Assembly: GCA_947168485.1 (NCBI GenBank)
Contig: CAMVLZ010000002.1
Span: 36,523-100,522, forward strand
Reading direction: 5' to 3'
DNA length: 64,000 nt
Source of the DNA: an uncultured Bacillota bacterium
Lineage (GTDB): Bacteria > Bacillota_I > Bacilli_A > RF39 > UBA660
The notes below the pieces were generated by a model, which did no database searches, had not been told where the DNA came from, and saw nothing but the letters and a program-made list of their open reading frames with translations. A program made the position numbers and the translations under genes. Positions 664-59,995 of the stretch are shown here, in pieces. Positions within the stretch are counted from its first letter, which is position 1. Each line of letters begins with the position of its first letter.

Positions 664-1728
664 TTATTTTTTTAAAGTTTTATTTTTCTTTAAAGATTCA
701 TAATCTCTATTTAATCTTTTAGCAAATATCATCTTACAATAATCAGATATTAAATTACCAGTAGATTCATTAGGTCTATCAAAACCATATCTTCTATAAT
801 GTGATTCATCATCAATAATAACATTAGATAAATCAATTTCAGTTAAAATATAATCAACAGTCTCTTTTTCTTCTTCACTAACTATACCTTGTGCAAGAGA
901 CTCTTCTATTAATGTATTAGTATCTACTCTATCATAATTTAATCTATAATATTCACTATTTATAGTAAGCATTAAATTAGATCCTTCAACACTAATTCTA
1001 TTTAATTCTTTTACTGATTTTAAATAATCTAATATATTTTCTTTATCTTCAGAAGATAATTTATCAAAATAATCTTTTTCTTCTTTTAATAAAGTACCCT
1101 GATTTTTGATTGATACTAATCTAGCTAATTCACTTTTACGTTCTTCTATTCTCTCTTTAAGTTTTTCTCTACCAAATAATTTATGTTGTAATTTCTCTAA
1201 ATCCTCATCTAATGATTTAGATAATTCCATTAATTTTTCTTCTAGATCAGTATGTTCTTCTTTCCACTTATTATATCTAACAGTAGAAGAATTATTATTA
1301 ATTTCATCTTCTAATTTTTCTATAGTTAAATGTTTACCATTAAATGTAAGAGGATAATACTCTCTATCTTCATTAATCCATTCATAATCATGATAACCAT
1401 GATATTCATAATTATCAGTAACTTCATAATGACCTTTTTCATGATAAGCATCTTTAGAATCTTCAACGTAATCAAAGCTATTACCTTCTATAAAGAATTT
1501 TGAATCTTCTTCAACTTTAATTCCTAAAGATTCTAATTTTTCTAATTTAGATTCAACTACTTCTCTTTGTTTAACAAATTGTTCTCCATAAACTTGAACT
1601 ATATCTAATAATTCATCTTCTTTTTTTCTAGCAACCATTGGTTTAGCACTAGCAACCTTCTTAAAGTAATTTAATAACTCCTCATTATTAATTATAAAAT
1701 GATACATTTTAATTAATTCTTCTGACAT
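664..1728 (-). CDS. hypothetical acidic coiled-coil protein with a His/Tyr/Asp/Glu-rich patch; no signal peptide or TM
   Basis: 354-aa ORF with AGGAGG 8 nt upstream of the ATG. The patch is AYHEKGHYEVTDNYEYHGYHDYEW (residues ~94-117). I recognise no family. It is monocistronic, between a riboswitch-like leader and a terminator. Confidence 0.75.
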   Translation of the reverse strand: MSEELIKMYHFIINNEELLNYFKKVASAKPMVARKKEDELLDIVQVYGEQFVKQREVVESKLEKLESLGIKVEEDSKFFIEGNSFDYVEDSKDAYHEKGHYEVTDNYEYHGYHDYEWINEDREYYPLTFNGKHLTIEKLEDEINNNSSTVRYNKWKEEHTDLEEKLMELSKSLDEDLEKLQHKLFGREKLKERIEERKSELARLVSIKNQGTLLKEEKDYFDKLSSEDKENILDYLKSVKELNRISVEGSNLMLTINSEYYRLNYDRVDTNTLIEESLAQGIVSEEEKETVDYILTEIDLSNVIIDDESHYRRYGFDRPNESTGNLISDYCKMIFAKRLNRDYESLKKNKTLKK

Positions 1729-1756
1729 TTTTTTGTCCTCCTATATCTCGTCTAAC

Positions 1757-1871
1757 AAAAAAGACGAGAACATTTTTATTTCAATGTGTCTCGTCCGAAT
1801 TACTTCTTATATTCCGGGTAAATAATTACCGATTGACGAAATATAACATTTAAGGACTACTCCCAAATTGA
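1757..1871 (-). promoter_or_regulatory. riboswitch-like leader, copy A (yybP-ykoY / Mn2+-like aptamer plus intrinsic terminator)
   Basis: Minus strand: UCAAUUUGGGAGUAGUCC...UUAUAUUUCGUCAAUCGGUAAUUAUUUACCCGGAAUAUAAGAAGUAAUUCGGACGAGACACAUUGA, then GACGAGA(CA)...UCUCGUC+U6. The helices can be drawn by hand. The strings GGGAGUAG, UCGUCAAUCG, CCGG and CGAGAC occur in the same order as I recall for Mn2+ riboswitches. Confidence 0.6.
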
Positions 1872-1878
1872 TGTACAT

Positions 1879-1907
1879 ATTATACCACAAAATTGCCATT
1901 TTGTCAA
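1879..1907 (-). promoter_or_regulatory. SigA-type promoter of leader copy A
   Basis: Minus strand TTGACA (1907-1902), 17-nt spacer, TGgTATAAT (-10 at 1884-1879). Confidence 0.75.
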
Positions 1908-1915
1908 TTTAAGCA

Positions 1916-2215
1916 TTATTTATCACTTATACTATTTTCTAAAAACTCAGTAATTTTATCAGTTAAAGAACATAATGATCTTTGTATAGAAGATGTATAT
2001 GTAACAACAGCTTCTACATATTCAGATTCAGAATCTAACATAGTATGTCCTTCTAAAATATCTTTTGTAACTAATAATTCATTATCACTACCTAGTTCAT
2101 CACACATTCTGTCTACTAGACCAGCAACTATTTTTAATTGTTCCAAAGATATTTCTTTTTTATCTATTAAAGATTTCTCTTTAAACTTTACCATATATTC
2201 ATCAAAATTTTCCAT
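1916..2215 (-). CDS. hypothetical protein (99 aa), coupled to the upstream 517-aa gene
   Basis: The ORF start lies 1 nt after the upstream stop (TGAtATG). No recognisable motif. Confidence 0.6.
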   Translation of the reverse strand: MENFDEYMVKFKEKSLIDKKEISLEQLKIVAGLVDRMCDELGSDNELLVTKDILEGHTMLDSESEYVEAVVTYTSSIQRSLCSLTDKITEFLENSISDK

Positions 2216-3904: not shown

Positions 3905-4339
3905 ATGAAATGTAATAGATGTGGAAGAGAAATTAATGATAATGAATCATACTGCATTTACTGTGGTAATCATATAAATATGAATTATAAAAAAAAATTT
4001 AATAAAGATAAAAAGAAAGAAAAAATTCAAAAGAAAGAAATAAATACTAATGATGATGAAATAGAAGATACTACTCTATTTGTAGCTGGAAAAGTATTCT
4101 TATTTTTAATACCATTAATTATATTCGGAATAGTAATGATGAAACATTATTTAAAAGAAGCACAACATCCACAAACGGAATTTTTTGGACCATTACCAGA
4201 ACTAATGATGGTAGGTTGTTTTGGTTTTTTAGTTTTGATACTATTACTTATTCCACTAGCAATTATAGTTAATGGAGCATTTACTGGAAAATATAGAAAG
4301 CATAAAAATGAAAAAGAAGAAAATAAAAAGACTGAATAA
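3905..4339 (+). CDS. zinc-ribbon membrane protein
   Basis: N-terminal CxxC-x12-CxxC (MKCNRCGREINDNESYCIYCG), a Lys-rich linker and two hydrophobic helices. SD is AGGAGA. Confidence 0.7.
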   Translation: MKCNRCGREINDNESYCIYCGNHINMNYKKKFNKDKKKEKIQKKEINTNDDEIEDTTLFVAGKVFLFLIPLIIFGIVMMKHYLKEAQHPQTEFFGPLPELMMVGCFGFLVLILLLIPLAIIVNGAFTGKYRKHKNEKEENKKTE

Positions 4340-6245: not shown

Positions 6246-7619
6246 TTAATTACCTTTATAAACACATTTAATAGGCTTAGTTACTTTTCCTCCAGGAATA
6301 TAATCACTTAACTTTTTAGTACCATCAGTTATATCCAAAGAAGGTACTAAATCTCCTTTATTAATCATATTATAAAACTTAATTTTATTATCATCCTTTT
6401 TACTATCAACTTTATCACGTGTTAAAGTAATAATATCATAAGCAGTTTGCACTTGTCCATTTGAACTAAATGTACCAAAACCATTTCCTTGAGAATCAAC
6501 CATAACTCCAAAATTTTGAATAATTGAAGTATTATTTTGATTATATTTAACCATATAAAATTGTCCAGCAACATCTGAATTATTCCAAGGAGATCTTCTA
6601 ATTGGAACAATTAAATCAGCAGCAGATCTACCAGTTTTAGTTGTAAATGAATAATAATATATTCCAGGTCCAAGATCATTTATTGATTTACCATTACAAA
6701 TTAATTCATCATTATATGCTAAATTTCTTAAATTATTTGAATATTCCTTCGCAGTAGAAACAAAAGTATTCTTTCTACTGTTTTCATAAGTACGCGAAGT
6801 AGCAGAAATAGAGCCAAGAATTCCAGCAACAATCAAACCAATAAAAGCTAGACTAATAATAACAACAATAATAACTATAGCAGAATTACCATTACCAGCT
6901 GCTCTACATCTATTAATTCTCTCATTTTCATCTGGTGTACTTCTTATAATATTATTAATTTTAATATCAGCTTTAACTAATTTATAATTAGGAAACTCTT
7001 TAGCATAATGAATAGCTAATGCTAATCCTGCAACCATGTTAACTATTGAACATATAGGTCTAAGTGGAGGTAATAGAGTTTGTACGAAACCAGTCGCAAA
7101 ACCAATAAGTAAGGCAATTACAAAATAGCTACCTGCCTCTTTAAACAAACCACTTGCTAGTAACCAAATTGGTCCAAAAAAGAAAGTACCAATTGAAAAA
7201 CCACTTTTAGCTACACTATCATATTTACCATGAAAATATGCATCATAATACTTATCTAAATTCTCATTATTTTGAGTAGGCATAGTAAATGAAGGTTGAG
7301 CACTTACTTGACTTAACATAGTACCACAGTTAGTACAATAATTAACACCAGGTGCTACTGGAGCATGACAATTAGGACAATTAGTAGGATTACTATTTTG
7401 AGTAGGCATCCCACTTCCTCCCATTGATTGAACTCCACTATTCATTGGTTGTGTCATATTGTTCATTGGTTGAACATTATTCATTGGTTGAACATTATTC
7501 ATAGGTTGTGACATATTATTCATTGGTTGTGCTCCATTATTTTGATTATTAAAAATAGCTCCACAATGGATACAATAATTTGTATTACTAATATTCATTT
7601 TACAATTAGGACATTCCAT
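6246..7619 (-). CDS. double zinc-ribbon / QPMNN-repeat / multi-pass membrane protein with a C-terminal pilin-like globular domain
   Basis: Contains CPNCK..CIHCG and CPNCH..CTNCG ribbons, QPMNN repeats and hydrophobic helices. The C-terminal ~190 aa align by eye with the 229-aa pilin at 26853..27542 (SRTYENSRKNTFVSTAKEY vs SRTIENSRRNTFLSTAKTY; SPWNNSDVAGQ vs SSWGNADVSGW; LTRDKV vs LTRADV). Confidence 0.8.
   Translation of the reverse strand: MECPNCKMNISNTNYCIHCGAIFNNQNNGAQPMNNMSQPMNNVQPMNNVQPMNNMTQPMNSGVQSMGGSGMPTQNSNPTNCPNCHAPVAPGVNYCTNCGTMLSQVSAQPSFTMPTQNNENLDKYYDAYFHGKYDSVAKSGFSIGTFFFGPIWLLASGLFKEAGSYFVIALLIGFATGFVQTLLPPLRPICSIVNMVAGLALAIHYAKEFPNYKLVKADIKINNIIRSTPDENERINRCRAAGNGNSAIVIIVVIISLAFIGLIVAGILGSISATSRTYENSRKNTFVSTAKEYSNNLRNLAYNDELICNGKSINDLGPGIYYYSFTTKTGRSAADLIVPIRRSPWNNSDVAGQFYMVKYNQNNTSIIQNFGVMVDSQGNGFGTFSSNGQVQTAYDIITLTRDKVDSKKDDNKIKFYNMINKGDLVPSLDITDGTKKLSDYIPGGKVTKPIKCVYKGN
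7440..7529 (-). repeat. in-frame tandem repeat encoding (M/V)(S/T)QPMNN x5
   Basis: CATTGGTTG(N9-12) units are visible in the DNA and translate to QPMNNMSQPMNNVQPMNNVQPMNNMTQPMN. Confidence 0.85.
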
Positions 7620-7715: not shown

Positions 7716-7791
7716 TGGTGTCCCTGAGAGGAGTCGAACCTCCGACCAAAGGTTTAGGAAACCTCTGCTCTATCCACTGAGCTACAGAGAC
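7716..7791 (-). tRNA. tRNA-Arg (anticodon CCU), CCA encoded
   Basis: Hand-folded cloverleaf: GUCUCUG/CAGGGAC acceptor stem, GCUC/GAGC D stem, GAGGU-UUCCUAA-ACCUU anticodon arm, GGAGG-UUCGACU-CCUCU T arm. 76 nt. Confidence 0.9.
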
Positions 7792-21666: not shown

Positions 21667-21694
21667 CAAAAAAAGTAGAAACAAGTTCTACTTT
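21667..21694 (-). terminator. intrinsic terminator after the 488-aa gene
   Basis: AAAGUAGAA-CUUGU-UUCUACUUU followed by a U-run. It overlaps the stop codon. Confidence 0.7.
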
Positions 21695-23154
21695 TTAATC
21701 TTTTTAAGTGTTCTAGTAAAAGCAAGAATTCTATTAGTTTTATCGATTTCTTTATCTTCAATATCTTCTTTAATATCTTCATCATTAGTAATTGAATCAG
21801 CATGAAATATATCATATAATAATTTAGCTTCATTACTATGTTTAGCCATAATATCATTATCTATAAATATTTTTCTAAATACTTCACTAGATAATGGATA
21901 TTTATCAGGATCTTCATAATGTTCTATCTTTCTAACAGTAAATATCGCATCAATTAATTTTCTCTTAGAAATATCAGATACTAATAGTTTTTTTGATTCT
22001 TCTTTAAATCTTTTTACTTTTTCTTCATAATAATAACCAAATTTTAGTACATCAGGTATTCCTAAATCTAAAACATCAACAAATATTTCTGGTAATAGAT
22101 TACTTCCAATTAATTGGTTACTAATTCTATTAAGTTGATCTAATGTTTCTTTATCAAGTTCTTCATAATTACCACTTTCATATATTTCAATAAATTTCTC
22201 AATAAAATATCGCGGATTAGAAGAAAACTCTCTATCAATAAATCTTTTATCTGTACTAAGAGAAGCAACAAGTGATTTACCAAAGTGCTTATATGAAGAT
22301 AAATACTCATTATTATCATTCTTTTTAGAATCAAAAGTTGGATCAAAAACATAATAACCATCTAAATTATATTTATCATCTTTAATATATACAATACTAT
22401 TAGCATGACCAGAAGTACCATTTTTACCCTTAAGATAATGTTCTTTACATTCTATACCTAATCCTTCAAGTACAGCATTAAATACTCTAGCATAACCTAA
22501 ACATACTATATTATCACCTAATAAAACAGAAGATAAATCTCTAGAGTCAAATGCAGAATATTCATCATCAACTTCATTGTATACTCTATCACGAACTAAA
22601 TCATAAGCAAAAGCAACTTTTTCTAATGGACTAAGATCATACTTATTAATATGAGAAACTATTTCATCAATAATTAAAACAGATTTTTCATATGTATCTA
22701 AATCAACATAATTATCATTACCTTTAACTTGTAACTGTAAATTATCTACATCACCAAATAAACTAATAAGTTTATTATAATCATCTTTAGAAACAGATAA
22801 TTTATCTGTAACAATAACTTCATCAAAACTATTATGTTTTAAAAATTTACTACTATTTTCATCCAAATTAACAAAACAATTACACTCTTCTAATAAATTA
22901 GCCTCTCCAGATACACATTCTTCCAATAATTTAAGTGTTTTAGGAGCATCACCAAAGAATGCAGGATCATCCATAAAAGCATATACATCATCTTTATAAG
23001 AAGAAAAAGCTCTCTCTAAAACAGGTCTAATCATATCCATAGTTAAAGTCTTTTCACTATAACTTGAGTTCATATCAAGAACTACCACATCTCCATAATA
23101 AGAAACTTCAATGTCTTCTAAATCATCTTTGAAAACAAAATAAATATTTTTCAT
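21688..23154 (-). CDS. cytoplasmic transglutaminase-like (Cys-His-Asp core) protein
   Basis: 488-aa ORF with no signal peptide or TM. Core: NIVCLGYARVFNAVLEGLGI ... GHANSIVY ... YYVFDPTFD. It is monocistronic behind leader copy B. Confidence 0.7.
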   Translation of the reverse strand: MKNIYFVFKDDLEDIEVSYYGDVVVLDMNSSYSEKTLTMDMIRPVLERAFSSYKDDVYAFMDDPAFFGDAPKTLKLLEECVSGEANLLEECNCFVNLDENSSKFLKHNSFDEVIVTDKLSVSKDDYNKLISLFGDVDNLQLQVKGNDNYVDLDTYEKSVLIIDEIVSHINKYDLSPLEKVAFAYDLVRDRVYNEVDDEYSAFDSRDLSSVLLGDNIVCLGYARVFNAVLEGLGIECKEHYLKGKNGTSGHANSIVYIKDDKYNLDGYYVFDPTFDSKKNDNNEYLSSYKHFGKSLVASLSTDKRFIDREFSSNPRYFIEKFIEIYESGNYEELDKETLDQLNRISNQLIGSNLLPEIFVDVLDLGIPDVLKFGYYYEEKVKRFKEESKKLLVSDISKRKLIDAIFTVRKIEHYEDPDKYPLSSEVFRKIFIDNDIMAKHSNEAKLLYDIFHADSITNDEDIKEDIEDKEIDKTNRILAFTRTLKKIKK

Positions 23155-23179
23155 AAAAATTCTCCTTTAAGGTCTTATC

Positions 23180-23294
23180 AAAAAAGACGAGACCATTTTT
23201 ATTTCAATGTGTCTCGTCCGAATTACTTCTTATATTCCGGGTAAATAAATACCGATTGACGAAATATAACATTTAAGGACTACTCCCAAATTGA
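23180..23294 (-). promoter_or_regulatory. riboswitch-like leader, copy B (yybP-ykoY / Mn2+-like aptamer plus terminator)
   Basis: About 135 nt nearly identical to copy A (3 substitutions) from the -10 region to the U-tract. The terminator is GACGAGAC...GUCUCGUC+U6. Confidence 0.6.
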
Positions 23295-23301
23295 TGTGCA
23301 T

Positions 23302-23330
23302 ATTATACCACAAAATAAGGAAAATGTCAA
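23302..23330 (-). promoter_or_regulatory. SigA-type promoter of leader copy B
   Basis: TTGACA (23330-23325), 17 nt, TGgTATAAT (-10 at 23307-23302). Confidence 0.75.
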
Positions 23331-23336
23331 TTAAAA

Positions 23337-23358
23337 CAAAAAAAGAGCTTACGCTCTT
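23337..23358 (-). terminator. intrinsic terminator of efp
   Basis: AAGAGC-GUAA-GCUCUU followed by U-run. It includes the efp stop codon. Confidence 0.7.
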
Positions 23359-40620: not shown

Positions 40621-40641
40621 TTAGTATTTCCTTCTTTTTTT
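40608..40641. terminator. bidirectional terminator formed by a 26-nt perfect palindrome at convergent gene ends
   Basis: AAGGAAATACTAA|TTAGTATTTCCTT (40608-40633) followed by a T-run. Both stop codons lie at its centre. Confidence 0.7.
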
Positions 40642-41127: not shown

Positions 41128-41177
41128 ATAACATCCCCCCAAATGTGTGCATATTATATCATAAAATTATAAAAAAG

Positions 41178-41206
41178 TAAAATAAAAGGATACAATATGC
41201 ATCCTT
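41178..41206 (-). terminator. intrinsic terminator after the giant pilin gene
   Basis: AAGGAU-(9 nt)-AUCCUU followed by UUUUAUUUU. Confidence 0.5.
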
Positions 41207-41218
41207 ATATTTTTTTAT

Positions 41219-43066
41219 TTATTTACATTTATTTCCATAATTACATGATCTACTAACCGGTAATCCACTAGTACAATTATTTAAAAGATCACACAATTTA
41301 TTCAAACGAACAGTTAATGGATTATTAGAAGTAGCTAAAATATCCTGTGTACTTCTAGCTCCATTAAAGCTTTCATTTTTACCGCCCCAAGAAACATTAG
41401 CATGAGGAGGAGAAATAGTAATACCTTCACGATAATAAATACCACAACCACTATCATTATAATCTATTTGATAATAATGTTTTGATCCATTTTTCCAATA
41501 ATCACCAGTTTTATAAGTGATAACATAAGTAGGTTTAGCTTTATCAATTCTAACATATTCAGACACTTCATCAGAACAATTATTAGTATCGTTGGCACCA
41601 CTCGCTTTAATATTACAAACTTTATATGTATATTTTTCATTAACTACTTTATTATTAGCACAAGTAAAAGTTCTAGGATAAATAGTTTTTTGCTTAGTTT
41701 TATTATTAAACTTTTTATATTTACCATCATCAACTTTATAATACCAATATCCTAATAAAGAAGCATCAGTACTAGTAGAAACTTTCCATTTTATATTAGA
41801 TTTTGTCCAGTTTTCTTTATATTTATTAGTTGTAAATTTTTTTGGACTAGTAATAGTAATAACAGGAGTTTTTGGTTTTGAAAGTTTCCAATTAGCATAC
41901 AAAGTAATTTCACAACCCTTAGTATGAACATCTTCTGCTTTACAAAAATCATCATAACTATAATCAGAAGTTTGATTATAATTTGTACCAGTACCATTAG
42001 CCTTAGTATTCCATACATCATCATCTATATAATAACCTGCTCTAGATAAATTTAAATAATCTTCATTATTCCAATTAATTAATCCACTAGAAGATAATTT
42101 TTTACCATATTTAATAGTATGAATTATATTAGTACTATTATTAATATATACATAATCGTTTTTAAGAGAATATTTAGAATTATAAGGGCTTTTTAAACTA
42201 CCACCATTACTATTAATATGAATAATAACTTTACCCACAAAATAATTAATAGTATAACTCCAACCTTTTCTTATTTTTTCATAACGACCAATTGTCTTAT
42301 TATTATCAACATCTTCTAATTCTCCATAGAATACAATTTGATATGTTGTATTCTCATCAGGATCTTCCATATTATCTGGTAAATTAATTTTTCTAGTAAC
42401 ACTAGAAGCATAATTCTTATTATTAAATTTTATTGTATTTTCATCACCTATCTTATTAGAATCTTTATACCATTGATAAGTAATCTCTTGGTCTTCTTTT
42501 AATCCTACACCATCATCTGAAATAGTAACTGATAATTTAGGTTTTTGATTCAAATAATAATACTCATTACCAGCATATTCACTAGAATCTTTAATTGTCA
42601 ATTGAGGTCCTTCTCCATCTTCTAAACTACAACTATCTAAATTAATTTCTTCAGGTCCTTCTCCATAAACAATTTCATAATTATCATTTCTACAAGTCAT
42701 ATGAGTATCATAATTATAATTACCATTTTTACTCTTTCTAACAAATACATAAGTAAAAGTCTTACCCTCACTTTCTCCTCCGCAATAAACATCTTTTAAT
42801 TGTAAGTCTTCAATCATATCTTTTTCTTTTAAATCTTCATACGTAATAACAGCACAACCAGTATTTTTAACACCAAATAAATCTTGATTATAATTATCTA
42901 CATATAATTGAGAAGAAGCTCTAATAGATTTTTCATATGTTACATATTTAGCATCTTTATTATTACTTTGAATAAAGGTAATTGAAGGTACAGCAATTAT
43001 CATCAATACACCCATTATCGCTATAGCAACAATTAATTCTATCATAGTAAAACCTTTACTCTTCAT
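41219..43066 (-). CDS. giant type IV prepilin-like protein (615 aa) with a Listeria-Bacteroides (Flg_new)-like repeat
   Basis: MKSKGFTMIELIVAIAIMGVLMIIAVP is a class III signal. An internal stretch, INSNGGSL...RAGYYIDDDVWNTKANGTGTNY...ITLYANWK, resembles Flg_new. The C-terminus is Cys-rich. ATG at 43066 is preceded by AGGTGA, and a terminator lies upstream of it. Confidence 0.8.
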   Translation of the reverse strand: MKSKGFTMIELIVAIAIMGVLMIIAVPSITFIQSNNKDAKYVTYEKSIRASSQLYVDNYNQDLFGVKNTGCAVITYEDLKEKDMIEDLQLKDVYCGGESEGKTFTYVFVRKSKNGNYNYDTHMTCRNDNYEIVYGEGPEEINLDSCSLEDGEGPQLTIKDSSEYAGNEYYYLNQKPKLSVTISDDGVGLKEDQEITYQWYKDSNKIGDENTIKFNNKNYASSVTRKINLPDNMEDPDENTTYQIVFYGELEDVDNNKTIGRYEKIRKGWSYTINYFVGKVIIHINSNGGSLKSPYNSKYSLKNDYVYINNSTNIIHTIKYGKKLSSSGLINWNNEDYLNLSRAGYYIDDDVWNTKANGTGTNYNQTSDYSYDDFCKAEDVHTKGCEITLYANWKLSKPKTPVITITSPKKFTTNKYKENWTKSNIKWKVSTSTDASLLGYWYYKVDDGKYKKFNNKTKQKTIYPRTFTCANNKVVNEKYTYKVCNIKASGANDTNNCSDEVSEYVRIDKAKPTYVITYKTGDYWKNGSKHYYQIDYNDSGCGIYYREGITISPPHANVSWGGKNESFNGARSTQDILATSNNPLTVRLNKLCDLLNNCTSGLPVSRSCNYGNKCK

Positions 43067-43111
43067 ACGATCACCTATTATAAGTTTATCACTACAAAAA
43101 ATATATGTAAA

Positions 43112-58006: not shown

Positions 58007-58035
58007 AAAAGATGGCTTATTTTAAGCCATCTTTT
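58007..58035. terminator. bidirectional terminator
   Basis: AAAAGATGGCTTA-TTT-TAAGCCATCTTTT. It overlaps the proS stop. Confidence 0.75.
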
Positions 58036-59714
58036 ACGTATGTAACAATCTTTTTAACTACATCTTTTGAAGATACTTCTAAAGTATTATCATTTCTTCT
58101 TTCTTTCCATTCAACTATACCATCTTCTGCTTTCTTACCTACAGTTATTCTTAATGGTATACCTATTAAATCCATATCTTTAAATTTAACTCCAGCTCTT
58201 TCATCTCTATTATCATAGATAACTTCAATACCTTTCTTAGTTAAATCATTATATATTTTTTCAGCTAATTTAGTTTGAGTTTTATCTTTCATATTAATTT
58301 GAACTAAACTAACTTGATATGGAGCTATATTCATAGGTAGAATCATACCATTCTTATCATTATTTTGTTCAATAATAGAAGCTAATATTCTACCTGGTCC
58401 AATACCATAAGAACCCATAATTGGATATTGTTCTTGGTTATTTTCATCTAAATAAGTAATACCTAAATCTCTACAATAATGATCTCCTAATTTAAATAAA
58501 TTACCTATTTCAATACCATGTTTAAAGTAAATATTACCTCCACACTTAGGACAAATATCTCCTTCAACAACATTAGCAATATCTCCAACTATATCATAAT
58601 TAATATCTTTAACATTTGCATTAATATAATGATAATCAGTCTTATTAGCACCACAAACAAAATTCTTCATATGAAGTACTTCTTCATCAACAACAACTGT
58701 ACAACCAGTTAATCCAACAGGACCAGTATATCCAGGTGCTGCATTAGATTCAGCTATTTGTTCATCATTAGCAAAACCAATCTCTTTACCACCCATTAAT
58801 TTTAATGCTTTTTCTTCATTTAAAGAACGATCTCCTCTAACAAAGAATATAGTTAATTTACCATCTACATGCATTAATAATGCTTTAACAGTATGCTTAA
58901 TATCAACATTTAAAAAATCAATAACATCTTCTATAGTGTGAGCATCAGGAGTATGAACCATTTCCATTTCTTTCTCTTCTTCTTCAACATCTAATATTTT
59001 ATAAGAAGCAACTTCCATATTAGAAGCATAATCACATTTATCACATAAAACTAATATATCTTCACCAATATCAGTAATTGCTTGATACTCTTCTGATAAA
59101 GTACCACCCATCGCACCAACAGAAGCTCTAACTATTTTATAATTAATATCCATACGATCAAATACATTACAATATGCATCATACATCTTCTTATAAGATT
59201 CATTTTGCATCTCTTCATCTCTATCAAAAGTATATGCATCTTTCATAATAAATTCTTTAACTCTAATTAATGCATATCTAGGACGTATTTCATCTCTAAA
59301 TTTATCAGCTTGTTGATATAGATTAAATGGTAAATCTTTATAACTTTTTAAATACATAGAAGCTGCTATAGCAAATAATTCTTCATGAGTAGGACCTAAT
59401 ACCATATTAGTATTCTTTCTATCATGTAATTTAAACATACTATCTCCAAAAGCTTCTACTCTACCACATTTTTCATAATACTCTCTAGGTATTAATGAAG
59501 GCATTAAAACTTCCATTGCTCCTGCAGCATCCATTTCTTCTTTAATAATCTTTTTAATTTTATCTAAAACTCTTAATCCTAATGGCAAATACATATAAAT
59601 ACCTGCCCCAACCTTTTTTATCATTCCACTACGTACTAATAAATTACCACTAGTACTATCTTCATCTTTAGCATCTTCACGTAATGTGAAAAAATAATTT
59701 TTATCTAATTTCAT
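58017..59714 (-). CDS. proS: prolyl-tRNA synthetase (bacterial type with an insertion domain)
   Basis: Class II motifs (FRDEIRPRYALIRVKEF, GSYGIGPGR). 565 aa, with a T-box carrying a CCU specifier upstream. Confidence 0.93.
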   Translation of the reverse strand: MKLDKNYFFTLREDAKDEDSTSGNLLVRSGMIKKVGAGIYMYLPLGLRVLDKIKKIIKEEMDAAGAMEVLMPSLIPREYYEKCGRVEAFGDSMFKLHDRKNTNMVLGPTHEELFAIAASMYLKSYKDLPFNLYQQADKFRDEIRPRYALIRVKEFIMKDAYTFDRDEEMQNESYKKMYDAYCNVFDRMDINYKIVRASVGAMGGTLSEEYQAITDIGEDILVLCDKCDYASNMEVASYKILDVEEEEKEMEMVHTPDAHTIEDVIDFLNVDIKHTVKALLMHVDGKLTIFFVRGDRSLNEEKALKLMGGKEIGFANDEQIAESNAAPGYTGPVGLTGCTVVVDEEVLHMKNFVCGANKTDYHYINANVKDINYDIVGDIANVVEGDICPKCGGNIYFKHGIEIGNLFKLGDHYCRDLGITYLDENNQEQYPIMGSYGIGPGRILASIIEQNNDKNGMILPMNIAPYQVSLVQINMKDKTQTKLAEKIYNDLTKKGIEVIYDNRDERAGVKFKDMDLIGIPLRITVGKKAEDGIVEWKERRNDNTLEVSSKDVVKKIVTYVKDGLK

Positions 59715-59794: not shown

Positions 59795-59990
59795 AAAAAA
59801 AAAATGGTACAAGGAGCGCAATGCACGGTACCATCCTATTTTTCTCTCTTATTGATAACGGATTATCATCCGAAAATACTTTCATATTTTACTCATGGGT
59901 AGGAATATAATACTATTATTACTTAGTCTCACCAAACCTAAGTTCTCTTAAAATAATTAATTATTATACTGTGTCCCAGTCATCGCATTT
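59795..59990 (-). promoter_or_regulatory. T-box leader (Pro, CCU specifier) with an intrinsic terminator
   Basis: Minus strand: GCGAUGA (GA/K-turn), AGAGA, GGUGAGA, then ...UUCCUACCC (CCU followed by a purine). The T-box is AAUAGGAUGGUACCGUG, and the terminator is AUGGUAC...GUACCAU+U10. Confidence 0.85.
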
Positions 59991-59995
59991 CAAAT

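Follow-up and report, generated by a model that had tools for sequence, protein, structure and literature searches.

A six-nucleotide L3 variant of the yybP-ykoY riboswitch type as a probable metal sensor ahead of orphan genes in an uncultured Bacillota bacterium

The window analysed here is a whole stretch of 64,000 nucleotides (nt) from the genome of an uncultured Bacillota bacterium (GenBank assembly GCA_947168485.1, contig CAMVLZ010000002.1, positions 36,523 to 100,522 of the forward strand). The leader RNA ahead of a gene for a 354-amino-acid (354-aa) protein in this window is probably a metal-sensing RNA of the yybP-ykoY type, a reading to which we assign a probability of about 0.8. It forms part of a promoter-riboswitch-terminator unit that is present in two copies, is built on a three-way junction and would act as a metal-dependent ON switch. 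By analogy with the characterised members of the family, Mn2+ is on balance the most likely ligand, and it is favoured because the sensor adenosine and loop L1 are intact. Since the length of loop L3 and the nature of the downstream genes depart from what is usual, the RNA is classed as a variant rather than as an ordinary yybP-ykoY member. Riboswitches for Mn2+ belong to the most abundant classes of riboswitch.

The sequence-only reading, an earlier annotation of this DNA by a model, had pointed out that the signature motifs of the leader occur in the same order in the Mn2+ riboswitch. The search pattern GGGAGTAG-N8-22-TCGTCAAT-N8-26-CCGG, which captures this order, has two matches in the window, where 0.00 are expected, and a scan of a genome collection found it in at least 120 genomes of many phyla. 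At least 93 genomic RNAs without P2 show the canonical layout in full, with the 3' [A/G]AGAC and the P1.1 helix. In a sample of 50 of these comparator loci the downstream genes encode TerC (21), P-type ATPases (15), Na/Ca exchangers (3) and CNNM proteins (2), so that transporters account for 41 of 50; this is the classical yybP-ykoY regulon. A covariance model, R1, was built from 73 aligned canonical P2-less RNAs with the structure P1.1, P1.2, P3.1, P3.2 and P4. In the alignment 90.7% of cells are paired, and the covariation exceeds that of 500 out of 500 shuffles and of all slid controls. Run over the whole 64-kb window with the filters off, R1 gives two strong matches, at 1780-1872 and 23203-23295, both full length with 39.3 bits and E ~9e-8, the next best match reaching 14.5 bits. 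As a control for circularity, 19 chance pattern loci, mostly coding, were scored and gave at most 16.8 bits. The end-to-end match of both copies bears out the earlier proposal of a yybP-ykoY relative that lacks P2, has a P4 of 3 base pairs (bp) and forms a three-way junction.

The features of the first unit are given below. Coordinates are window positions throughout, both units lie on the minus strand, and the detailed anatomy is that of copy 1.

1879..1907, minus strand: promoter of copy 1, with the -35 box TTGACA at 1907-1902, a 17-nt spacer and TGgTATAAT, its TATAAT at 1884-1879
1780..1872, minus strand: predicted yybP-ykoY-type aptamer of copy 1, 93 nt, matched by R1 with 39.3 bits over model positions 1-98
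1871-1864 with 1788-1781, minus strand: helix P1.1, UCAAUUUG with CACAUUGA, 7 of 8 pairs and one U.C mismatch
1863-1858 opposite 1792-1789, minus strand: loop L1, GGAGUA opposite GAGA
1857-1854 with 1796-1793, minus strand: helix P1.2, GUCC with GGAC, 4 bp
1853-1847, minus strand: linker in place of P2, UUAAAUG, 7 nt
1846-1837 with 1816-1807, minus strand: helix P3.1, UUAUAUU-UCG with CGG-AAUAUAA
1836-1831, minus strand: loop L3, UCAAUC, 6 nt, the equivalent of the sensor adenosine being A1834
1830-1817, minus strand: hairpin P3.2, GGUAA-UUAU-UUACC, in which GGUAA (1830-1826) pairs with UUACC (1821-1817)
1806-1797, minus strand: hairpin P4, GAA-GUAA-UUC, 3 bp capped by a GNRA loop
1757..1795, minus strand: intrinsic terminator of copy 1, GACGAGA(C)ACAUU / AAUGU-UCUCGUC followed by U6, with the 5' arm at 1795-1783, the loop at 1782-1775, the 3' arm AAUGUUCUCGUC at 1774-1763 and U6 at 1762-1757
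1746..1752, minus strand: post-terminator repeat A' of copy 1, GACGAGA, complementary to UCUCGUC (1769-1763) in the terminator 3' arm
1742-1737 and 1728-1726, minus strand: Shine-Dalgarno (SD) sequence AGGAGG and start codon ATG of the 354-aa gene
664..1728, minus strand: first regulated gene, encoding the 354-aa protein and followed by a terminator of its own (665-644)

On the minus strand a 99-aa open reading frame (ORF; 1916..2215) is followed by the promoter, the structured RNA, the hairpin with U6, the SD sequence and the ATG, exactly where the sequence-only reading had placed the elements from the promoter onwards. The promoter carries an extended TG at 1887-1886 and is the sole 12/12 sigma-70 match within the first 4 kb of the window; transcription would start at about 1874-1872, 1-3 nt ahead of P1.1. 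The aptamer segment alone has the described fold as its minimum free energy (MFE) structure, at -20.4 kcal/mol, and the structure drawn earlier by hand, at -18.8 kcal/mol, is essentially the same. Its register needed correction in P3, where UCG at 1839-1837 pairs with CGG at 1816-1814 and extends UUAUAUU/AAUAUAA, and the hairpin that had been drawn as CGGUAA/UUAC(C)CG is GGUAA/UUACC, which leaves UCAAUC as a 6-nt loop. The whole leader folds with a z-score of -4.4 relative to shuffles, none of 200 being equally good.

The family hallmarks are found as follows. The L1 columns, GGGAGUAG with its A-minor adenosine and 3' [A/G]AGA-C, are present in the window as GGGAGUAG at 1864-1857 and GAGAC at 1792-1788; they are invariant in the 73 comparators, but there they are imposed by the pattern and the filter. 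Around L1 stand P1.1 and P1.2, both within the MFE fold of the aptamer segment, and among relatives P1.1 has pairs in which both bases are changed. The P3 clamp of the comparators consists of a U-G pair (imposed by the pattern), a G-C pair and the closing G-C, each in 73/73, together with a C-G pair in 71/73; all of them occur in the window RNA. In L3, A1834 aligns with the sensor adenosines A41 of L. lactis (UCA41AUUC) and A48 of X. oryzae. A four-way junction with P2 and P4 is absent, the aptamer having no P2 and a P4 of 3 bp. The loss of P2 noticed earlier is real but not special, as at least 93 genomes share it; it is ordinary in the family, the whole comparator set being without P2.

The expression platform is of the competing kind. 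The 3' strands of P1.2, L1 and P1.1 (GGAC-GAGA-CACAUUGA) and the 5' arm of the terminator (1795-1783) share sequence, the terminator of copy 1 has a folding energy of -14.5 kcal/mol, and once the 3' arm is included in the transcript the MFE structure becomes terminator plus P3 arm in place of P1.1/P1.2, at -30.8 kcal/mol for copy 1 and -32.5 kcal/mol for copy 2. The competition between aptamer closure and termination proposed earlier is thereby confirmed in the folding. In canonical switches Mn2+ stabilises the weak P1.1 helix, which results in antitermination and transcriptional ON control, and the contact specific for Mn2+ is made by the invariant L3 adenosine (L. lactis A41, X. oryzae A48) through its N7 (PMC6754395). 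On the model of these crystallised aptamers, a divalent metal, most probably Mn2+, would bind in the window RNA between L1 (GGGAGUAG / GAGA) and L3 (UCAAUC, A1834), dock the two helical legs and stabilise the weak switch helix P1.1/P1.2. As the terminator 5' arm is made of the 3' strands of P1.2, L1 and P1.1, the metal-bound aptamer would block the terminator and let RNA polymerase enter the downstream gene (ON), while without metal the more stable terminator would form and a transcript of ~115 nt would be released. The ON sign suggested before by analogy is probable, since the terminator is placed as in the canonical ON Mn2+ switches. It had been objected that UUUCGUC could also pair with GACGAGA and obscure the sign of regulation. 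Such a pairing is confined to copy 1, where the full-length fold has it with the post-terminator repeat near the SD sequence as partner. It is absent from copy 2 and from the relatives, and for that reason it is not considered part of the mechanism and does not blur the sign.

The second copy, which the sequence-only reading had missed together with the 6-nt L3 and the regulon, was revealed by a repeat search as a 163-nt direct repeat (1753-1915 versus 23176-23338) of 92% identity.

23302..23330, minus strand: promoter of copy 2, with TTGACA at 23330-23325 and TGgTATAAT, its TATAAT at 23307-23302
23203..23295, minus strand: predicted aptamer of copy 2, the same as copy 1 at 92 of 93 positions, 39.3 bits, E 8.9e-8
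23180..23218, minus strand: terminator of copy 2, GACGAGAC.CAUU / AAUG GUCUCGUC followed by U6, -16.9 kcal/mol
23171..23176, minus strand: A' repeat of copy 2, AAGACC, in which AGACC (23175-23171) pairs with GGUCU (23194-23190) in the terminator 3' arm
21688..23154, minus strand: second regulated gene, encoding a 488-aa soluble acidic protein and followed by ftsK

Ahead of the copy 2 promoter come efp and, after it, a small terminator-like hairpin. Homology between the copies begins precisely at the -35 box and ends with the terminator U-tract. The lone change in the aptamer falls in the P3.2 hairpin (GGUAU..UUACC in copy 2), the equivalent of the sensor adenosine is A23257, and the promoter spacers have diverged despite the 99% identity of the aptamers. 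Logan contigs that carry either downstream gene begin within the leader at the same point, and so do those of a related species with 81-82% protein identity (L001, L157; handles of this form denote the loci collected here). The duplication therefore predates the split from that species, because a break at the same leader position is what is expected of a repeat that interrupts assembly.

Some further observations concern the sequence around the two units. Each A' repeat is a second copy of the terminator 5' arm that comes directly behind the U-tract. In the window its pairing with the 3' arm gives hairpins of -11.7 kcal/mol (1746-1769, minus strand) and -9.8 kcal/mol (23171-23194, minus strand), and perfect A' complements of 8-10 nt occur in relatives as well (L131, L132, L133, L135, L137, L141, L146 and L005). 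A run of A' type that is reached by no more than 5% of shuffles is present in 24% of 66 yybP-type leaders. A' lies past the termination point and may affect the SD sequence or P1.1 of the read-through mRNA. A third promoter-like site at 41146-41187 (minus strand) has the -10 box and initial transcribed sequence TGaTATAATATGCACA in common with both riboswitch units; it leads directly into the GGGGGG-ATG of an ORF ending at 40621, with no aptamer.

That each unit has a strong promoter of its own and an efficient-looking terminator, and that the unit is multi-copy, would also fit a quite different product. The ~115-nt terminated transcript could be the main one and serve as a trans-acting small RNA, the genes being read through incidentally; the homologous element of Streptococcus is filed in Rfam as a small RNA (RF02617, SSRC10). 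We consider this improbable. The distance from the U-tract to the start codon is ~28 nt in copy 1 and ~25 nt in copy 2, and the downstream genes depend on read-through because this gap leaves no room for another promoter. Moreover, the RNA accompanies one and the same protein family in different lineages, and complementarity to targets is neither found nor needed to explain its conservation.

A metagenome scan for the 6-nt form of L3 returned 23 stretches. Eleven of these were rejected as chance matches, being GC-rich and apparently coding. The other 12 are true relatives, 11 of them in AT-rich contigs (23-32% GC) and one, L143, at 51% GC; the sample names SHIW14 and AUXO01 suggest sheep rumen. 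The 6-nt L3 is fixed in all 12 and in both window copies. Subtype A (L131, L132, L135, L137, L146 and, added later, L148-L150) has the window core almost base for base, and two other groups, L133/134/141/147 and L138/142, combine the same UCAAUC loop with different helix sequences and a P2 hairpin. In 12 of 13 variant leaders examined TTGACA-17-TATAAT stands 14-15 nt ahead of GGGAGUAG, with TACAAT in L146, and no consensus promoter was found in L143; a terminator follows the variant aptamers wherever the downstream sequence suffices. Among the 12 distinct variants 90.5% of cells are paired, 13 pairs are changed on both sides, and none of 500 shuffles reaches the covariation score. Examples are the second P1.1 pair (U-A/A-U/G-U), P3.2 (GGUAA/UUACC versus GGUUA/UAACC) and the P4 loop (GUAA/GCAA). 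Covariation of the helices is seen in the canonical and the variant sets alike.

These data also bear on the idea of a decayed riboswitch, in which the aptamer binds nothing while the promoter and a leaky terminator set a constitutive low expression. The short L3 and the minimal P4 could point to erosion, the genome being very AT-rich (25% GC). However, the aptamers are 80-93% identical between lineages whose 354-aa (p354) proteins share 34-40% identity; the core is almost invariant across them, as it is between two copies with diverged spacers. Compensatory changes maintain the helices, and L1, the UCG/CGG clamp and the sensor adenosine are intact. Decay is very unlikely.

Locus L141 holds two yybP-type elements 850 nt apart (445-555 and 1295-1389), each with a promoter, a terminator and its own orphan gene, an arrangement seen in L147 as well. 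At 26 bits the upstream element has diverged further, and a possible reading of its L3 is ACAACGU, similar to that of X. oryzae; a 5-nt L3 at L141:445-555 was considered and rejected, as the loop can be drawn equally well as the 7-nt ACAACGU. Since this divergent element also precedes an orphan gene, the unusual regulon appears to be a trait of the lineage and not strictly of the short loop.

The p354 protein is soluble, acidic (22% D+E) and largely helical, and has no match in Pfam or NCBIfam. Its family comprises five 90% clusters among 5.8 billion proteins, and all members whose upstream sequence is available follow the RNA, either directly (the window, L131, L148, L149 and L150) or as the second gene of a controlled operon (L132, L146). 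The motif GH[YF]x5Nx2Yx2YHDxEWxNxDRx2Y at residues 99-125 is invariant in all five known members; rich in His, Asp and Glu, it holds many residues of the kind that bind metals. A p354 profile found no match among PDB sequences. The AlphaFold2 model is mediocre (pLDDT 66.5), with the conserved motif in a disordered region of low confidence, and Foldseek against the PDB returned generic coiled coils only (E > 0.5). An exhaustive HMMER search added 45 remote relatives, and all ten of those tested are without Pfam matches.

The 488-aa protein has a weak transglutaminase-like core, C..H..D (PF01841, E = 0.002), and ~30 homolog clusters. The RNA is also found at a close ortholog, and a homolog is the third operon gene in L142. 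The notion that the RNA stands ahead of every homolog was rejected, as the distant homologs L152, L154 and L155 have no such element. The other controlled genes encode proteins of 106, 177 to 206, ~240 and 300 to 340 aa, all soluble and without Pfam matches. As a separate observation, a yybP-type element with canonical L3, a P2 hairpin and no P4 in another uncultured AT-rich Bacilli genome (L122:4415-4504) lies ahead of the gene for a 237-aa protein in which the S-adenosylmethionine decarboxylase domain PF02675 is matched at E = 5e-18, a further association with a non-transporter.

Several points weigh against assigning the leader to the yybP-ykoY type with Mn2+ as ligand. RF00080 has no match in the window at the gathering score of Rfam 15, nor at the leader region at E <= 10, and the window RNA does not reach the gathering threshold of 45 bits. 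The comparators were selected by a pattern that the window copies match too. The alignment of the variants, on which part of the covariation evidence rests, is small, model-fitted and partly made of close relatives. Known metal transporters are absent from the regulated genes, all of which encode soluble proteins outside Pfam families; neither window gene is a cation exporter of the TerC, MntP, P-type ATPase, UPF0016 or similar kind. Finally, L3 is UCAAUC, 6 nt, versus UCAAU-N-C, 7 nt, in 73 of 73 comparators, and with a metal pocket one residue shorter the affinity or selectivity for metals may differ.

The missing RF00080 match, which had been put forward beforehand as a refuting test, turned out to be uninformative. 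At the gathering score a T-box and a tRNA are the sole Rfam 15 matches of the whole window, the weak matches of the leader region at E <= 10 (SNORA20, rli34 and others) are unrelated, and RF02617 SSRC10 is not among them. The RF00080 model has 177 positions with long P2 and P4. At the gathering score it recognises 0 of 18 pattern-selected loci, most of them canonical and including P2-less leaders of TerC and P-type ATPase genes. The Paenibacillus TerC leader (L005) scores 27.4 bits against the threshold of 45, its alignment deleting the 19-nt P2 segment and most of the long P4; the Acholeplasma laidlawii leader (L055) has no match at all; and the Streptococcus castoreus element is matched by RF02617 'SSRC10' instead. 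Because the model also fails on these bona fide members, a missing match says little about P2-less RNAs. It follows that annotation pipelines leave the leaders and regulons of the P2-less branch unmarked.

In the R1 alignment L3 of the window RNA shows a one-column deletion at N; in the comparators the loop is followed by an invariant G that closes P3.2, and the N-C-G columns are not imposed by the pattern. The crystallised aptamers have an L3 of 7 nt, UCA41AU43UC in L. lactis and ACA48UACU in X. oryzae, and inner-sphere coordination of Mn2+ involves the phosphate of X. oryzae C51, the counterpart of L. lactis U44 in the alignment (PMC6754395). The same fold and ON logic could have been kept while the contracted loop changed the ligand to another divalent cation (e.g., Ca2+, Fe2+, Co2+/Ni2+, Zn2+ or Mg2+), the odd regulon then reflecting the biology of that ion. 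Such a change would agree with the 6-nt L3 in 12 of 12 variant relatives and both copies, with the inner-sphere phosphate contacts that L3 gives to the metal, and with the lack of any Mn2+ exporter among the regulated genes. Sherlock and Breaker considered that yybP variants of altered metal specificity probably exist and that they would account for gene associations inconsistent with Mn2+ (PMC7266159). Yet the sensor adenosine and the whole of L1 are unchanged, the L141:445-555 element with an L3 of possibly normal length (ACAACGU) also precedes an orphan gene, and positive evidence for any particular ion is absent. We regard a changed ligand as possible, though clearly less probable than Mn2+.

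A tentative extension of the yybP-ykoY assignment, which we hold to be somewhat doubtful, is that these RNAs make up a distinct subclass with a 6-nt L3, whose cassettes have multiplied in very AT-rich rumen and gut Bacillota and control a regulon of soluble acidic orphans, made up of the p354 family, the transglutaminase-like protein and further proteins of 200 to 340 aa. They might respond to a different ion or serve the handling of Mn2+ in the cytosol, by sequestration or through Mn-dependent functions. In either case the locus provides a compact 93-nt candidate with a single defined difference in the metal loop and with natural 7-nt comparators at hand; no published example of a predicted Mn2+ riboswitch variant of altered selectivity was found in the literature. 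The assignment would also link metal status to four or more uncharacterised protein families, and one of them, found only behind this RNA, would gain a handle on its function.

The surroundings are those of a housekeeping chromosome region, with PolA, FtsZ, FtsK, MurB/G, a penicillin-binding protein, DnaG, sigma-70 and RNase J; a phage origin was rejected, as the DNA has no similarity in a phage collection. The 520-aa and 99-aa ORFs immediately upstream of copy 1 are acidic and without Pfam matches. Other features of the window are the following.

59809-59992, minus strand: T-box leader, 95.6 bits (gathering score 93), upstream of a 565-aa ORF at 58017..59714
7719-7791, minus strand: tRNA gene, 66.9 bits
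27456-30036 and 43005-43067: small paralogous genes in tandem that carry N-terminal methylation (pseudopilin-type) motifs, among which five ORFs match PF07963 and the direct-repeat families D1-D6 are ~915-930 nt apart
3905-4339 and 6246-7619: zinc-ribbon proteins, one with TcaA-like and DUF4064 hints, one with DUF2628

Comparison with known systems places the window RNA close to yybP-ykoY and at the same time apart from it. With RF00080, L. lactis yoaB (PDB 4Y1I) and the X. oryzae aptamer it shares L1 (GGGAGUAG and 3' GAGA-C), the switch helix P1.1 and P1.2. It also has in common with the family P3.1 closed by UCG/CGG, an L3 of the form UCAAU.C with the sensor adenosine, P3.2 closed by G-C, a terminator whose 5' arm is the 3' strand of P1.1/L1, and a predicted ON logic. 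It differs in its 6-nt L3, the lack of P2 (three-way, as in many natural members) and a 3-bp P4 with a GNRA loop. Its genes are soluble orphans rather than TerC, MntP, P-type ATPase or UPF0016 exporters, it has no Rfam match, and a genome holds several copies of the unit, all with consensus promoters of their own.

The nearest layouts are the P2-less leaders of Tissierella (L041), Paenibacillus (L005) and A. laidlawii (L055), with the same three-way arrangement, an L3 of the UCGUCAAU type and a terminator platform; the GUU/AAC-GAGAC of A. laidlawii resembles GUCC/GGAC-GAGAC of the window. They differ in a 7-nt L3 (UCAAU-N-C), a longer P4 and a P-type ATPase, TerC or Na/Ca exchanger downstream. 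The RF02617 SSRC10 consensus has the same order, GGGAGUAG .. UCGUCAAUACG .. CCGG .. CGAGAC, followed by a terminator, and in S. castoreus a P-type ATPase lies downstream; SSRC10 is the terminated form of a yybP-type leader. It differs from the window RNA in having a P2 hairpin and a 7-nt L3, and the window RNA has no RF02617 score. As an analogy only, the ykkC subtypes, the guanine/xanthine/2'-dG riboswitches and the FMN variants likewise combine a small change of the pocket with different controlled genes.

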